Below are positions 38,962 to 43,610 of a stretch of DNA of 43,823 nucleotides, in pieces (position 1 is the stretch's first letter; each line of letters opens with the position of its first letter). The position numbers and the translations under genes are program-made. Below the pieces are notes generated by a model. It had not been told where the DNA came from, made no database searches, and saw nothing but the letters and a program-made list of their open reading frames with translations. The DNA comes from a virus: the IMG/VR virus record IMGVR_UViG_3300045988_085211, positions 1-43,823 of that record. One strand, 5' to 3'.

Positions 38962-39285
38962 ATGGCTCAATTTGATAAGATATTAAAATTATTGAGAAAT
39001 GAGAAAAATATGTCCCAGCAAGAACTCGCTGATGCTCTTGGAATATCAAAAAGTTCTATAAATATGTATGAGCGGGGTGAACGGCAACCGAATTTTGAAG
39101 TGTTAGAAGCAATTGCCGATTTCTTCAATGTAGATATTGATTATTTGTTAGGGCGAACAAACAAAACAACCAAAATAATAAATCCAAACACCATCGCCGC
39201 ACACTTCGATGGCGATGAGTACACCCCAGAGGAACTTGATGAAATCAAAGCCTTTGCAGAATTTGTTAAGTCAAAAAGAAAGTAG
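38962..39285 (+). CDS. CI-like XRE-family repressor
   Basis: MSQQELADALGISKSSINMYERGERQP HTH; divergent from cro; followed by the ImmA-like gene. Confidence 0.85.
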   Translation: MAQFDKILKLLRNEKNMSQQELADALGISKSSINMYERGERQPNFEVLEAIADFFNVDIDYLLGRTNKTTKIINPNTIAAHFDGDEYTPEELDEIKAFAEFVKSKRK

Positions 39286-39335
39286 TCCTTTTTATAGGAC
39301 AGTAGATAATTTAAGATGCGGTGGAGGTGATTATA

Positions 39336-39812
39336 ATGAATAAATTCGAAGAATTATGTCAAACCGCTTCTGATACAAATGTAGATATCATTGATTATTC
39401 TTTTACCAGTAAGCGAATCAAAGGATTATATTGCGACGGTACTATTGCACTTAACCGTGATATGTACATAGAAACCGAAAAAGCTTGTGTGCTTGCAGAA
39501 GAATTGGGACACCACTACACAACAGTTGGAGATATTATGGATCAGACAGATACGGCAAACCGAAAGCAGGAACGACGTGCCCGAATCTGGGCGTACCACA
39601 AACTACTCTCTCTTAATGATCTGGTTGATTCATACAAGCATGGGTGTCAAAACCAATTTGAGATTGCCGAACATCTAAACGTCACAGAAGAATTCCTTAT
39701 GGATTGTTTAAGCTACTATAAGGAAAAATATGGTCTTTATGTCAGACAAGACAATTATGTAATATACTTTGAACCATTAGGAATATTGGATATTTACGAA
39801 ATGAGAAAATAA
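39336..39812 (+). CDS. ImmA/IrrE-like (DUF955) protein with variant metal motif EELGHH
   Basis: Position directly after the XRE repressor; LAEELGHHYT occupies the place of HExxH. Confidence 0.6.
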   Translation: MNKFEELCQTASDTNVDIIDYSFTSKRIKGLYCDGTIALNRDMYIETEKACVLAEELGHHYTTVGDIMDQTDTANRKQERRARIWAYHKLLSLNDLVDSYKHGCQNQFEIAEHLNVTEEFLMDCLSYYKEKYGLYVRQDNYVIYFEPLGILDIYEMRK

Positions 39813-39846
39813 TATCTTCTCGATTTTGTGAAAGAAGGTGTACCAC

Positions 39847-40911
39847 ATGAAGAAAAAGCATGGAATATTATGGTATATTGTAGTTTTTCCCTTTATTGCA
39901 CCATTTTATTTAGCCTACTACATTTTTTTATTTTTCATATCACTTAGTATATATATGATACAATTGCCTTTTCGTATATGCCAAATATGTTTTAAGCAAA
40001 TTGTACAATTGTTTAAAATTCCGTTTTCTCATAAGGAAACTGTTACTAATGGGATTGAATATGAACAATATTGTGCCAATTACTTAAACAGGCATGGATA
40101 TCGAAATGCCAAAGTAACAAAGGCAAGCGGCGATCATGGTGTTGATGTTATAGCATATAAAAGAGGTAAAAAATACGCAGTTCAATGTAAATATTATTCC
40201 TCTCCAGTAGGCAATAAAGCAATTCAAGAAGTTTATACTGGAATTGCTTTATATGATTGCAATCATGGAATTGTTATCACAAATTCAACCTTTACAAAAC
40301 AGGCGAAAGCCGAAGCTTCAAAACTCGGGATAAAACTTATGCCTATGGTTGAGCCACAAGGAAAGCTTTTCCCTGTAAAGTCAATACTTGCGTTTATTAT
40401 TTTTATACTGTTTTTGGTGTATCCCAAAGAAGTAATTATATTTCTTTCAATTATATTCTTCATGATTCTTGTTTACTATTTAGGACGTAGAACATATTTG
40501 AAAATGAAATACAAGGTTCCCGAACAGGAAACATTTAATTCGAAGTGGGACCTCGAAGAAAAACAACCTTCAACTGAAATTGAGCCAACTTTAACTTTTG
40601 AAAATACAGTTGAAAAAGATCTTTCATATATTTCCGAGGTCGATCCATATACCACTCTTAATCAGGAGAAATGTGAGGAAAAAATAATTACTGAGCAGCT
40701 TACTGAACAAGTTTCTGAACAAGTTTCTGAACAGGTTTCCAATCATGATCGTAGCGAAACCAAACATAAAGAACCAAAGCGTTCCAATAATTCAAGTAGA
40801 AGTATAACCACAAAGCCCAAACCTCCCCTTTCTAGATACGATTTGGAAAGGTACGCTGTTATGTGCAATGCTGATTTAGAACATAAAGATGAAATGGAGC
40901 AATATAAATAA
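39847..40911 (+). CDS. Membrane-embedded Mrr_cat-type restriction-endonuclease-domain protein
   Basis: GDHGVDVIAY..YAVQCKYY..GIVITNSTFTKQA core flanked by TM helices on both sides; acidic repeat tail. Confidence 0.7.
   Translation: MKKKHGILWYIVVFPFIAPFYLAYYIFLFFISLSIYMIQLPFRICQICFKQIVQLFKIPFSHKETVTNGIEYEQYCANYLNRHGYRNAKVTKASGDHGVDVIAYKRGKKYAVQCKYYSSPVGNKAIQEVYTGIALYDCNHGIVITNSTFTKQAKAEASKLGIKLMPMVEPQGKLFPVKSILAFIIFILFLVYPKEVIIFLSIIFFMILVYYLGRRTYLKMKYKVPEQETFNSKWDLEEKQPSTEIEPTLTFENTVEKDLSYISEVDPYTTLNQEKCEEKIITEQLTEQVSEQVSEQVSNHDRSETKHKEPKRSNNSSRSITTKPKPPLSRYDLERYAVMCNADLEHKDEMEQYK
40705..40740 (+). repeat. 12-bp x3 in-frame tandem repeat (EQVS)3
   Basis: GAACAAGTTTCT GAACAAGTTTCT GAACAGGTTTCC. 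Confidence 0.9.
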
Positions 40912-40933
40912 TTATTTTTTCAATTAAAAACCG

Positions 40934-40956
40934 CTCTGGTGCTACCGACACCAGAG
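40934..40956 (-). terminator. Hairpin CTCTGGTG-N7-CACCAGAG with its U-tract on the - strand only
   Basis: Perfect 8-bp stem; the - strand reads ...CACCAGAGCGGTTTTTAATTG. Confidence 0.5.
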
Positions 40957-41042
40957 CAAGTACCTTGACAATATAATACACTTACCCGGGAAGCCGAGGA
41001 ACGGTTGCATCTACTCCGAGCCTGTGAAGGGGGATGATGCCG

Positions 41043-41129
41043 ATGGTTACATATTCTGATCTGTTCACGTTTGTGATAATGATATGTGCTATTGTTACAC
41101 TAGTTTGTAATTTCAGACATAAAAAATAA
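41043..41129 (+). CDS. 28-aa hydrophobic type I toxin candidate (Hol-Tox/Fst-like)
   Basis: RBS GAAGGGGGA 8 nt upstream; MVTYSDLFTFVIMICAIVTLVCNFRHKK has a single TM helix and a basic tail; below the ORF-track cutoff. Confidence 0.6.
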   Translation: MVTYSDLFTFVIMICAIVTLVCNFRHKK

Positions 41130-41164
41130 CCGTCCAGCTCCTGAGAAAAGTTGACGGCTATTTT
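41121..41164. terminator. Putative bidirectional terminator shared by the toxin mRNA and the antisense RNA
   Basis: A-run, CCGTC..GACGG stem, T-run; readable from both strands; the stem is weak. Confidence 0.4.
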
Positions 41165-41219
41165 CCATTGATTTTTCGCCGGAGTAGATAGCTGACACCT
41201 ATCTATCGGCTTTCCTGTT
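41122..41219 (-). ncRNA. Putative antisense antitoxin sRNA (about 95 nt)
   Basis: Starts about 7 nt after the consensus promoter; has an 11-bp 5' stem-loop; ends at the terminator whose U-tract overlaps the toxin stop codon. Confidence 0.5.
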
Positions 41220-41225
41220 AAGTGT

Positions 41226-41254
41226 ATTATATGTGATATGTATACTTTTGTCAA
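41226..41254 (-). promoter_or_regulatory. Perfect-consensus sigma-70 promoter firing leftward
   Basis: TTGACA (41254-41249), exactly 17 bp, TATAAT (41231-41226). Confidence 0.7.
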
Positions 41255-41258
41255 ATGG

Positions 41259-41284
41259 CCATTTTGCCAACGTTGGCAAAATGG
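41259..41284. repeat. 26-bp perfect palindrome CCATTTTGCCAAC/GTTGGCAAAATGG
   Basis: Every position 41259-41271 pairs with 41284-41272. Confidence 0.95.
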
Positions 41285-41335
41285 TGTAAACCGATATTAC
41301 CAAAAAGATAATGAAACTGTATGGAAAGGAAAAAT

Positions 41336-42445
41336 ATGGACGATTTCAAAGATCAATTACAAGCTATGCTTTTACGTAATACAAGCCATACCAAAGAACA
41401 GCCTGTTGCACCCACAAACTCTGATGAATCGCAAGTGATTTCTCCGGATTCGCCAGCAAAGGAAGTTGTACTCTACCAAACAGATGACGGCAATGTAAAC
41501 GTCTCTGTGATATACTATAATGAATCATTTTGGCTTACACAAAAAGCTATGGGGGAATTGTTTGGAGTTAACTCTCAAGCAATAACAAAACATCTAAGAA
41601 ATATTTACGAAGAGGGCGAGCTTTCTAAAGAAGCAACTTGTTCCAAAATGGAACAAGTTCAAATTGAAGGTAATCGTGAAGTAAAACGTAATCTCGATTT
41701 TTACAATCTTGATGCTATTATTGCAGTTGGATATCGGATAAGTTCTATGAAAGCCACTAAATTTCGTCAATGGGCAACTACTACCCTAAAAGAATATATA
41801 ATCAAAGGCTTTGTGCTTAATGATGATATGTTGAAGAATGGTCCCAAATTCGGAAAAGACTATTTTGACGAATTACTGGAAAGAATCAAAGAAATTCGCG
41901 CCAGCGAACGACGGTTCTATCAGAAGATCACGGACATCTACGCGCAATGCAGCTACGATTATGATCCTAAAAGTGAAACAACACGGACCTTTTTCAAAAC
42001 GGTCCAAAACAAGTTGCTCTTTGCAATTACAGGACACACCGCACCTGAGATTATTCATGATCGTGCGGACAGTACCAAGGATCATATGGGGATGCAGACA
42101 TGGAAAAATGCTCCAGATGGTAAAATTTTGAAGTCAGATGTTACCGTATCCAAAAATTATCTCTCAAAAGAAGAGATTTCCGGATTAAATGATATCGTCA
42201 ATATGTATCTGGATTATGCAGAAAACCAAGCAAAACGAAATAAGCTGATGTCCATGAATGATTGGATAACAAAATTAGATTCGTTTTTACAGTTTAATGA
42301 ATATGATCTGATGGAAAACCTCGGAATCATCTCTCGCGAAGTAGCAAATTCCTTAGCAATAAAGGAATATGAGAAATACAGAGTTATTCAAGATGATAAT
42401 TATGTTTCTGATTTCGATAAAGCCACAAAGAAATATTTGAAATAA
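41336..42445 (+). CDS. RhuM-family protein
   Basis: VSVIYYNESFWLTQKAMGELFG..NLDAIIAVGYRISS..ASERRFYQKITDIYA signature of RhuM-like proteins. Confidence 0.75.
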   Translation: MDDFKDQLQAMLLRNTSHTKEQPVAPTNSDESQVISPDSPAKEVVLYQTDDGNVNVSVIYYNESFWLTQKAMGELFGVNSQAITKHLRNIYEEGELSKEATCSKMEQVQIEGNREVKRNLDFYNLDAIIAVGYRISSMKATKFRQWATTTLKEYIIKGFVLNDDMLKNGPKFGKDYFDELLERIKEIRASERRFYQKITDIYAQCSYDYDPKSETTRTFFKTVQNKLLFAITGHTAPEIIHDRADSTKDHMGMQTWKNAPDGKILKSDVTVSKNYLSKEEISGLNDIVNMYLDYAENQAKRNKLMSMNDWITKLDSFLQFNEYDLMENLGIISREVANSLAIKEYEKYRVIQDDNYVSDFDKATKKYLK

Positions 42446-42602
42446 TAAAACCGCCCTGCTCTACCAAAGCAAGGCGGCAAGCTCCCGAATGATACGAAAG
42501 CCCTAAGCAAGCATATTGTATCATTCTCGGAGCAGCTACGCAAGCGGAACACCCGTTCCACGCTGGCTGTTATTTTTATACACAATTTTAAGGAGGTACA
42601 AT

Positions 42603-43610
42603 ATGAATGCAAGAAAATTACCATCCGGATCTTGGAGAGCACGGCTCTTTCTGGGTGAGGATGAGCAGGGAAAGAAACACTACAAATCTTTTACAGCTCC
42701 AACAAAACGCGAGGCTGAAAAGCTGGCTCTTACATACGAAGCAGAGCAAGCAAAGGAAAATGATATCTCTTTCGGCAAAGCTTACGAAAATTATTTGGCA
42801 CTAAAATCTAATATTCTGTCTCCTTCTACGCTACGCGGTTACCGGCAAATGGAAAGCTATTTTAAAGAGATTAAAGACATAAGAGTGTCAGATATAGATC
42901 AGGAAACTGTCAAAGCCTTTATCAATAAGTTTGCGGGGAAATATTCGCCTAAAACTACACGTAACTGCTATAGCCTGCTTTGCGCTGTTATTCGTTCCGA
43001 AATTCCGAATGCAGACTTTAAAATAACGCTTCCTCAAAAAGAAGTGTTAACCTACTACATTCCAAAAGACCAGGAAATAAAAAAGATCCTTGATTACACA
43101 AAAGAAAAGAATTATGACCTATACATTGCAATTTTGCTCGCTTCTATTGGCACCCTACGTAGATCAGAAATTTGTGGTTTGACGATCTCTGATGTCGATG
43201 GTAACATAGTACATATACACAATGTTGTAGTTAAGGGGCCAAATAAAGAATGGGTTCTTAAACAGGTACCAAAAAATAGCACGTCTGACAGATATGTGGA
43301 ATATCCCGATTTTGTTATTTCGGAACTTCCAAAAGAGGGGAAACTTTGTAACCTGAATCCCGATAGGATCACAAACGAGTTTGGACGCGCTTTGAAGAAA
43401 CTTGGATTGCCACATTTTCGTTTTCATGATCTTCGCCATTATGCAGCTACAATTATGCATGCAATGGGTGTGCCAGAAGCATATGTAATGGAGCGTGGGG
43501 GGTGGAAAACAAATACAACTCTAAATCAGGTTTACAGAGGAACACGTTCTGATTTTTCAAAAAAATATGCGGCCCAGACAAATGCATATTTCGGAAAACA
43601 TCTAAGCTGA
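42603..43610 (+). CDS. int: Tyrosine recombinase/phage integrase with N-terminal arm-binding domain
   Basis: RBS AAGGAGG; KLPSGSWRARLF arm-type N-terminus; HDLRH..GGWKT..VYRG catalytic region. Confidence 0.95.
   Translation: MNARKLPSGSWRARLFLGEDEQGKKHYKSFTAPTKREAEKLALTYEAEQAKENDISFGKAYENYLALKSNILSPSTLRGYRQMESYFKEIKDIRVSDIDQETVKAFINKFAGKYSPKTTRNCYSLLCAVIRSEIPNADFKITLPQKEVLTYYIPKDQEIKKILDYTKEKNYDLYIAILLASIGTLRRSEICGLTISDVDGNIVHIHNVVVKGPNKEWVLKQVPKNSTSDRYVEYPDFVISELPKEGKLCNLNPDRITNEFGRALKKLGLPHFRFHDLRHYAATIMHAMGVPEAYVMERGGWKTNTTLNQVYRGTRSDFSKKYAAQTNAYFGKHLS

Follow-up and report, generated by a model that had tools for sequence, protein, structure and literature searches.

The DNA analysed here (the window) is a viral stretch of 43,823 nt, positions 1 to 43,823 of the IMG/VR record IMGVR_UViG_3300045988_085211. 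Its positions 40965-41254 hold a cassette of ~290 bp with elements on both strands, which, judged from its sequence, is very probably a type I toxin-antitoxin (TA) module of the TxpA/BsrG (Hol_Tox) kind in the lysogeny region of a Lachnospiraceae prophage. Coding constraint in a short open reading frame (ORF), a family of sister cassettes, conserved promoters and a conserved terminator, a long-range helix of the + strand RNA and the proximity of recombinase genes were observed. The general features of type I modules were found, namely a small hydrophobic ORF under selection and, as predicted from the sequence signals, an antisense RNA gene that has its own promoter and terminator and overlaps the toxin mRNA. 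The elements described in an earlier note on this DNA are all present, at the coordinates given there or within 1 nt of them.

Three exact-pattern scans of IMG/VR gave 29 loci on viral contigs, and one gapped pattern, in which only the two cassette ends were specified, gave at least 120 loci in a set of species-representative genomes. Among the matches listed, nearly all carriers were Lachnospiraceae or other gut Clostridia, with the genera Dorea, Blautia, Mediterraneibacter, Enterocloster, Roseburia, Eisenbergiella, Frisingicoccus and Murimonas; cultured carriers include Dorea acetigenes, Blautia schinkii DSM 10518, Roseburia porci and Frisingicoccus caecimuris DSM 28559. From these matches 130 oriented modules were extracted, of which 120 were unique and 99 remained at < 90% identity. 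The alignment A1 and the covariance model R1 comprise 97 non-redundant cassettes including that of the window; promoter counts refer to 95 cassettes, peptide family counts to 90 peptides and those on the central hairpin to the 97 modules. Conservation runs from a TTGACA hexamer at the left edge (40965, + strand) to a second TTGACA at the right edge (41254, - strand), and the flanks differ among the relatives; the unit was therefore taken to be the 290-bp cassette. The whole arrangement was seen again in many unrelated flanking contexts, which is more than chance would give. Model R1 scored 213 bits at 40973-41230 of the window, which is one of its training sequences, and found no second cassette copy in the window. 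A BLAST search of the 421-bp region against phage and plasmid collections and a tblastn search of the peptide against phages gave no match.

The putative toxin ORF lies on the + strand and spans 41034/41043-41129. From the ATG at 41043 it encodes 28 amino acids (AA), MVTYSDLFTFVIMICAIVTLVCNFRHKK, followed by the stop codon. The ATG is invariant across the 97 relatives, and the gene assignment is further based on the codon pattern and on sister peptides that belong to Hol_Tox. A Shine-Dalgarno (SD) sequence, GAAGGGGG, is located at 41026-41033 (+), 9 nt before the ATG, and a purine-rich block upstream of the ATG is conserved. An earlier note on this DNA, made without database searches, had proposed this mini-ORF together with its peptide and ribosome-binding site, and all three are present. 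Single-nucleotide codon differences between the relatives numbered 8856 at the third, 2355 at the first and 1339 at the second codon position, and 8552 differences were synonymous versus 3998 non-synonymous. Because third-position and synonymous differences dominate, the 28-codon ORF reads as a real coding sequence under purifying selection.

The family peptides have 25-32 AA, nearly all of them end in HKK, NKK or RKK, and the mean hydropathy of residues 7-22 is 2.59. This supports the single hydrophobic helix with a basic tail that had been described for the window. Two subfamilies were distinguished, beginning with MSTYEE(F/L)... and MVTYSDLF..., and the peptide of the window belongs to the second. 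The Pfam family Hol_Tox (PF16935) matched 47 of the 90 family peptides at E ≤ 0.01 (best E = 3.1e-9); with 24.0 and 25.0 bits, the peptides of loci L012 and L019 were above the gathering cut-off of 23.3 bits. As positive controls, BsrG, whose sequence was confirmed as 100% identical in SPbeta, scored 34.5 bits, and a sequence which we take to be that of TxpA scored 31.3 bits. Since about half of the sister peptides fall into the Pfam family of BsrG and TxpA, the cassette family can be placed by sequence in the TxpA/BsrG toxin family, with the subfamily of the window as a divergent branch tied to it by the RNA framework. The earlier note had likened the peptide to Fst/Hol-Tox-type toxins; the family is Hol_Tox rather than Fst/Ldr.

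For the peptide of the window no Pfam or NCBIfam hit was obtained. NCBIfam scans gave only weak matches to the competence inhibitor ComI (E = 0.002-0.055), and a search of solved structures with the peptide profile gave no match. Four family peptides were absent from a collection of 15 billion proteins in an exact look-up, and the family is therefore effectively unannotated. An exhaustive phmmer search returned 91 clusters, mostly ORFs wrongly extended via the 5' untranslated region (UTR) or chimeras. On inspection, the database entries matching the peptide (P0001-P0091) were mostly ORFs extended in this way, fusions of two peptides or assembly artefacts; the end of P0064, ...GRASCRERV, is a translated sequencing adapter.

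The two predicted promoters differ clearly in their match to the consensus. The antitoxin promoter (TTGACA, 17 nt, TATAAT; 41226-41254, - strand) agrees with the consensus at 12/12 positions and is the sole perfect site in the 1.2-kb region scanned. Its -35 box, which was absent from all search patterns used to collect the relatives, matches at 6/6 positions in 66/95 cassettes and at ≥ 5/6 in 86/95. The toxin promoter has its -10 box TATAAT at 40972-40977 (+), with a predicted start near 40984, and no -35 box at the proper spacing; among the relatives, the best match at a spacing of 16-18 nt reaches ≤ 3/6 in 87/95. Both the textbook promoter converging from 41254 and the toxin promoter without a properly spaced -35 box, as noted earlier, are confirmed, and the weak-toxin/strong-antitoxin asymmetry that had been predicted from them is conserved family-wide. 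A TTGACA at 40965-40970, 1 nt upstream of the toxin -10 box, is kept in most cassettes (with 41232-41240 on the - strand). Pairing of this left TTGACA with the right one in an extended helix was considered and rejected, as no covariation was found and only 1 of 56 variant cases matched.

The promoter pattern also bears on whether the peptide is a toxin. It might instead be a non-toxic prophage membrane peptide, such as a holin-like modulator, a superinfection exclusion protein or a ComI-like inhibitor, the antisense RNA only tuning its level. The Pfam family name 'holin-like' and the weak ComI matches would suit such a role, and for some peptides of the wider family there are hosts in which they show no toxicity (Fozo 2010, PMC2887945). 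We consider this unlikely: a -35-less peptide promoter combined with a consensus antisense promoter, kept in ~90% of cassettes, is the signature of a product to keep off, BsrG and TxpA, which share the Pfam family, have proved toxic in experiments (PMC3834814, PMC2887945), and the site beside the integrase and among defence genes agrees with a role in maintenance or defence.

The two ends of the cassette resemble each other. The 13-mer TATAATACACTTA is present at 40972-40984 (+) and at 41219-41231 (-), which confirms the duplication of the -10/start region of the antisense promoter pointed out in the earlier note. With ≤ 1 mismatch, 3 matches were found in the window versus 0.07 expected, and 0 of 100 shuffles reached 3. 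The 13-mer sits in a 27-nt inverted repeat (40971-40997/41206-41232) that is 89% complementary, and a second, perfect inverted repeat of 10 nt is formed by 41009-41018 and 41180-41189. The ends are not merely twin promoters, however, but flank the arms of a long-range helix in the + strand RNA.

For alignment A1, RNAalifold gave a helix joining both ends of the cassette, a central hairpin and a local hairpin. A structure specified by the helices 40986-40996/41207-41217, 41124-41133/41154-41163 and 41186-41191/41199-41204 was paired in 94.8% of the cells compared with 80.8% in shuffles, and 0 of 500 shuffles reached the observed values; sliding the partners as a control reduced pairing to 35-51%. 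Of its 26 pairs, 22 vary on both sides, i.e., the changes are compensatory. The check for covariation among homologous cassettes suggested in the earlier note was therefore positive for the helix and the hairpins.

The outer part of the long helix, P1a, pairs 40986-40996 (+; A1 columns 14-24) with 41207-41217 (+; columns 291-301), as given by RNAalifold and covariation; 96.9% of the cells are paired and 9 of 10 pairs vary on both sides. Along the unbiased diagonal through this outer helix, the non-Watson-Crick pairs read on the + strand were G:U in 134 and A:C in 20 cases. The inner part, P1b, pairs the pyrimidine-rich arm 41009-41018 (+) with 41180-41189 (+). It is poorly aligned in A1 and was tested sequence by sequence, with only internal pairs used for the comparison of G:U and A:C, which gave 105 versus 52 on the + strand. 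The best P1b helix of the relatives had a mean of 9.0 bp compared with 6.5 bp in shuffles, and in 40 cases listed its usual end lay 21-33 nt before the ATG, with 24-25 nt as the most frequent distance; in a separate scan, in which G:U and A:C were scored alike, its 5' arm occurred in 79 distinct sequences. Because G:U exceeds A:C, the long helix is concluded to fold in the + strand RNA and not in DNA or in the - strand RNA. As the + strand RNA holds both arms, the toxin mRNA should therefore read through the central hairpin to at least 41217, and the antisense RNA should in turn be wholly, not partly, complementary to the toxin 3' UTR. The minimal extent of the predicted toxin mRNA is 40984-41232 (+); its 3' end could lie at a hairpin at 41258-41285. 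The fold of 40984-41232 has an energy of -76.7 kcal/mol with z = -3.3 and paired ends, while an RNA cut at the central terminator has z = -0.8. Two C:U mismatches in the outer helix (A1 columns 13/302 and 15/300; 40985/41218 and 40987/41216) are conserved in 66-67 of the 97 modules, which suggests a required irregularity rather than drift.

The central hairpin (41124-41163, both strands), flanked by an A-run on its left and a T-run on its right, is the predicted terminator of the antisense RNA. The element of A-run, stem and T-run (41123-41164) covers the last Lys codons and the stop codon, and the A-run encoding Lys-Lys-stop of the peptide is the source of the U-tail of the antitoxin. A core pair of the stem covaries (CG 50, GC 32, AU 7). 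In 87 of the 97 modules the - strand version of the hairpin is the more stable one; a U-run of ≥ 5 follows it on the - strand in 64 modules and on the + strand in 37, and the window has 4. Accordingly, the bidirectional terminator overlapping the stop codon that was claimed in the earlier note exists as regards the element and its overlap, but its predicted termination on the + strand is weaker and in the toxin mRNA would be at most leaky. The local hairpin (41186-41204, both strands; stem 41186-41191/41199-41204), in which 97.9% of the cells are paired and 5 of 6 pairs vary on both sides, would be the 5' stem-loop of the antisense RNA and, in the toxin mRNA, an alternative to part of P1b. The predicted antitoxin RNA of ~100 nt (41119-41219, - strand), set by promoter and terminator, is fully complementary to the last three toxin codons and the 3' UTR behind them. 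Folded from 41219 to 41119, it has -32.7 kcal/mol and z = -4.65, a stability that none of 200 shuffles reached; the 5' stem-loop at 41178-41210 and the terminator hairpin with a U-run expected from the earlier note were borne out.

Several results weigh against the interpretation as a TxpA/BsrG-like TA module. On the + strand, too, a U-run of ≥ 5 follows the central hairpin in 37/97 relatives, and much of the toxin transcript may stop there without the 3' arm. A terminator of the toxin mRNA was sought beyond the cassette: a hairpin of ≤ -10 kcal/mol within ~75 nt was present in 37% of the relatives versus 27% of random segments, 24 of 33 of these hairpins begin directly after the antitoxin -35 box, and no conserved toxin-mRNA terminator was found after the cassette among the relatives, the hairpins having no U-tail. 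The predicted accessibility of the SD sequence was 0.33 in the free, 0.29 in the truncated and 0.29 in the antitoxin-bound mRNA, differences too small to speak for or against translational control. Regarding the peptide, the profile check with PF16935 proposed in the earlier note was positive for the sister peptides but negative for the window itself, whose 28-AA and 31-AA forms had no match at E ≤ 10, and the comparison with BsrG showed a weak N-terminal match (hhalign probability 13%). The family link of the window peptide consequently rests on the shared RNA cassette and this N-terminal match. Regarding the RNA, the Rfam family BsrG (RF01412) aligns end to end with 40974-41253 (+) at 19.5 bits and E = 0.025, far below its gathering score of 55 bits, and it matches 4 of 5 other members on the correct strand with 16-23 bits; the Rfam scan of the window gave nothing at the gathering threshold. 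Reciprocally, model R1 did not recognise SPbeta bsrG (L150, 347-643; 3.9 bits, E = 3.1), and nhmmer against SPbeta bsrG gave no hit. Due to the sub-threshold Rfam match and the failed reciprocal tests, homology to bsrG at the RNA level is not demonstrated.

The results on the transcript ends would also suit a short-overlap model similar to par/fst, implicit in the earlier note, in which the central terminator would end both RNAs and leave an overlap of just ~45 nt, the similar cassette ends being two copies of promoter plus leader. A hairpin with an A-run and a T-run could terminate both ways, and both the + strand U-runs and the lack of a conserved terminator past the cassette are in line with this. 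We nevertheless judge the model improbable. The arms covary as base pairs, with non-Watson-Crick pairs that are mostly + strand G:U (134:20 and 105:52), unlike duplicated promoters or leaders; besides the weaker + strand hairpin in 87/97 modules, the + strand U-run is ≤ 3 in 42/97, and an RNA ending at this hairpin has no excess structure (z = -0.8). Moreover, the repeats of par/fst are direct and its 5' ends complementary, whereas the repeats of the cassette are inverted and its 5' ends alike. A mobile DNA element of the miniature inverted-repeat transposable element type, with terminal inverted repeats for transposition and with ORF and promoters being incidental, would explain a discrete unit of ~290 bp with inverted ends that occurs in many contexts and sometimes in tandem. 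This is very improbable, given that the strand-dependent G:U bias of the arms is unexpected for DNA repeats, the ORF is under purifying selection, the internal hairpins covary and the insertion slot is specific, i.e., prophage lysogeny modules. Hardly any credence is given to the 90-AA ORF on the - strand (40982-41254) as the real gene of the gap, which the earlier note had considered a probable artefact and which is indeed not conserved: it is the longest ORF there and has a sub-threshold Pfam match to DUF7634 (E = 0.0099; 16.6 bits versus a cut-off of 27), but no NCBIfam hit, a stop-free - strand stretch of ≥ 85 AA is found in only 1 of the 97 modules (the window itself; median 58 AA), and the substitution pattern agrees with the + strand frame.

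For the TA module, a mechanism was inferred by analogy with bsrG/SR4 and txpA/RatA; it covers the transcripts themselves, cleavage by RNase III, control of translation, how stable the RNAs are relative to each other, toxicity and the biological role. The weak -35-less promoter (-10 box at 40972-40977) would give a + strand mRNA for the 28-residue single-helix membrane peptide. This mRNA would pass the central hairpin, and its first ~35 nt would pair with nt ~197-234 (40986-41018 with 41180-41217), like P1 of bsrG. The consensus promoter (41254-41226) would produce an abundant RNA of ~100 nt, from 41219 to ~41120, consisting of the 5' stem-loop, a variable linker and the terminator. As the exact complement of the toxin 3' UTR, with the 3' half of the helix included, it would form a duplex of ~100 bp, RNase III would cleave this duplex and the toxin mRNA would be destroyed. 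A second effect is possible, in which antisense pairing displaces the 5' arm of the mRNA and the pyrimidine-rich segment 41009-41018 then pairs with the SD sequence. In the partition function, the main predicted partner of the SD sequence is the 5' UTR between P1a and SD including 41009-41018, with 47.5% of the pairing mass; as a model prediction, this translational step is weakly supported. Upon loss of the prophage or collapse of transcription, the less stable antisense RNA would decay first, the peptide would be made and enter the membrane, and growth would stop. In this way the module would stabilise the prophage or abort infection.

In the window, the cassette is preceded by genes for a cI-like helix-turn-helix (HTH) repressor (38962-39285), an ImmA/IrrE peptidase (39321-39812) and a membrane-anchored Mrr_cat nuclease (39838-40911), and followed by RhuM (41321-42445) and a tyrosine integrase (42516-43610). 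The cassettes are usually located between prophage repressor or accessory genes and the integrase. In 10 sampled diverse genomes, the downstream neighbour was a tyrosine integrase in 5 and a serine recombinase in 3; the other two were a SIR2_2 protein and a DUF3644 protein with a restriction-endonuclease-like domain. Upstream neighbours were HTH repressors (4), ImmA, Abi_2 (2) and others. The slot beside integrase and repressor fits a role in prophage maintenance or defence, and prophage maintenance has been proposed for the prophage type I modules of B. subtilis and C. difficile (PMC6563280). The cassette stands directly upstream of, and co-oriented with, an integrase or serine recombinase gene in 8 of the 10 genomes, and the toxin transcript, which is without its own conserved terminator, faces a consensus convergent promoter and a leaky bidirectional terminator. 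For these reasons the cassette might additionally act as a gate on recombinase expression, although we assign a low probability to this. If it were true, a zone of collision and termination would lie in the path to int of any transcription coming from the repressor operon or the toxin promoter, and the antisense level could couple prophage excision or integration to the TA state. The TTGACA abutting the toxin -10 box could be part of such a control.

Outside the conserved unit, a perfect palindrome of 13+13 nt, CCATTTTGCCAAC/GTTGGCAAAATGG, is located at 41258-41285 (+; arms 41259-41284), directly upstream of the antitoxin -35 box, with rhuM ~40 nt further on. Neither strand shows a U-run behind the palindrome, which may serve as an operator or form the 3' stem-loop of read-through toxin mRNA. 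The sequence 42446-42520 (TAAAACCGCCCTGCTCTACCAAAGCAAGGCGG...) is the same as that adjoining the right cassette edge in the IMG/VR relatives L002 and L005-L009, and the palindrome at 41259-41284 together with rhuM therefore looks inserted between the cassette and the hairpin/integrase. Upstream of the toxin promoter, a hairpin at 40931-40959 reads as a terminator on the - strand and could stop antisense read-through. Many cassettes are flanked by GC-rich hairpins that follow AAAA, have the loop GCUACCAAC or GCCAACA and mostly lie just past the antitoxin -35 box; examples are 40931-40959 and 42450-42478 of the window and the right flanks of L048, L080, L099 and others. With a narrow regular expression, they were found in 16 of the 97 right flanks versus ~0.4 expected. 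A stretch of 15 nt (GGTGCTACCAACACC) is identical between L080, L099 and the bsrG terminator of SPbeta (L150, 610-624). These flanking hairpins may be what remains of a shared 3' stem-loop.

Two cassettes on one contig were seen in L012 (1133-1729), L071 (3608-4212) and L098 (102-666) and also in L067 and L107. The copies of L012, L071 and L098 are in tandem with a spacing of 45-80 nt. In L012, L098 and L107, an MVTY-type is paired with an MSTYE-type or a second MVTY-type, and in L071 both are of the MSTYE-type. Within the window, a 12-nt tandem repeat GAACAAGTTTCT of ~3 copies at 40700-40740 encodes an EQVS repeat in the C-terminal tail of the Mrr_cat protein.

Type I modules are nearly invisible to annotation pipelines. 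The cassette is absent from the collection of 15 billion proteins and from Rfam, yet it occurs in at least 120 species-level genomes and in many viral contigs, each time within a prophage lysogeny region; it is uncatalogued yet ordinary in kind and introduces no new principle. The alignment of 97 cassettes with its covariation-supported structure suffices to define a candidate new RNA family, which would allow annotation of the peptide and the antisense RNA across gut metagenomes. The bsrG/SR4-type design, with an mRNA closed from 5' to 3' end and an antitoxin acting on the 3' arm, would be extended from Bacillus to the dominant butyrate-producing clade of the human gut, and the module is a likely factor in prophage stability or phage defence of gut Lachnospiraceae.

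Among known systems, par of pAD1 (fst/RNA II) has direct 5' repeats which make both RNAs complementary, and RNA II blocks translation. The cassette shares with it a small hydrophobic toxin, convergent transcription and a shared bidirectional terminator. In contrast to par, its repeats are inverted and do not make the 5' regions complementary, the predicted 5' ends are near-identical, the two RNAs are complementary only in the toxin 3' UTR, and the toxin belongs to Hol_Tox instead of Fst/Ldr. The resemblance to both par/fst and txpA/RatA claimed in the earlier note therefore holds for txpA/RatA, and also for bsrG/SR4, but not for par/fst. In hok/sok and AapA1/IsoA1, 5'-3' pairing keeps the full-length toxin mRNA inert, and the toxin mRNA of the cassette would likewise be closed by pairing of its two ends. 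There, however, the antitoxin targets the 5' or translation-initiation region and 3' trimming activates the mRNA, whereas the antitoxin of the cassette would target the 3' arm; the toxins are unrelated and the hosts are Proteobacteria. The prophage type I modules of Clostridioides difficile are also found in Clostridia, are prophage-borne and have been proposed as prophage stabilisers (PMC6563280). They differ in the arrangement of the antisense RNA and in toxin length and sequence, their toxins having 34-59 AA without sequence similarity to the B. subtilis families (PMC6563280).

The TxpA family was set up by Fozo et al. in 2010 with 118 members (PMC2887945). In this family the convergent antisense RNA overlaps the 3' UTR, by ~110 nt in E. 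faecalis, and in txpA/RatA the duplex is degraded by RNase III (PMC2887945). Common to the cassette, txpA/RatA of the skin element and EF3263 of E. faecalis are the N-terminal motif M-(S/V)-T-Y-(E/S), a convergent antisense RNA over the 3' UTR and a location in excisable elements; TxpA differs in having 59 AA. According to a passage in a 2019 review, the 2010 survey contained TxpA-like sequences in Clostridium bolteae, one of the Lachnospiraceae (PMC6563280). In the literature collection searched, no paper was found which names both TxpA and Lachnospiraceae or which describes the cassette family in Lachnospiraceae, and no description of a long-range closing helix or cassette structure was found for the TxpA-like sequences of Lachnospiraceae.

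The closest counterpart is bsrG/SR4 of SPbeta. In the bsrG mRNA, nt 1-35 pair with nt 232-262 in P1, which carries the stem-loops SL1-SL3 with the SD sequence in SL1 and the stop codon in SL3 (PMC3834814, Jahn and Brantl). The targets of SR4 are SL3 and the 3' half of P1; cleavage is RNase III-dependent, SR4 binding frees nt 1-33 and lengthens the helix hiding the SD sequence, and the antitoxin promoter is the stronger one (PMC3834814). The cassette resembles this system in being prophage-borne with a toxin family in Hol_Tox, in the pairing of the first ~35 nt of the mRNA with a 3' segment such that SD sequence and ORF are enclosed (here indicated by covariation and the + strand G:U bias), in a stop codon at the foot of a hairpin complementary to the antitoxin terminator, and in the stronger antitoxin promoter. 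According to the geometry of the conserved promoter and terminator, its predicted antisense RNA would be the complement of the 3' region of the toxin mRNA and would pair with that hairpin and with the 3' half of the helix. Differences are a peptide of 28 AA versus 38, an antisense RNA of ~100 nt versus 183 and a host clade of Lachnospiraceae versus Bacillus. Furthermore, the antisense RNA of the cassette starts inside the 3' half of the helix, and the 5' ends of both RNAs are therefore near-identical. Where bsrG has a terminator stem-loop after the helix, the antitoxin promoter is found instead, and no toxin terminator covered by the antitoxin directly follows the helix. On this comparison, the cassette is filed as a module that would work like bsrG/SR4, with a toxin of the same family, outside the Rfam BsrG family.

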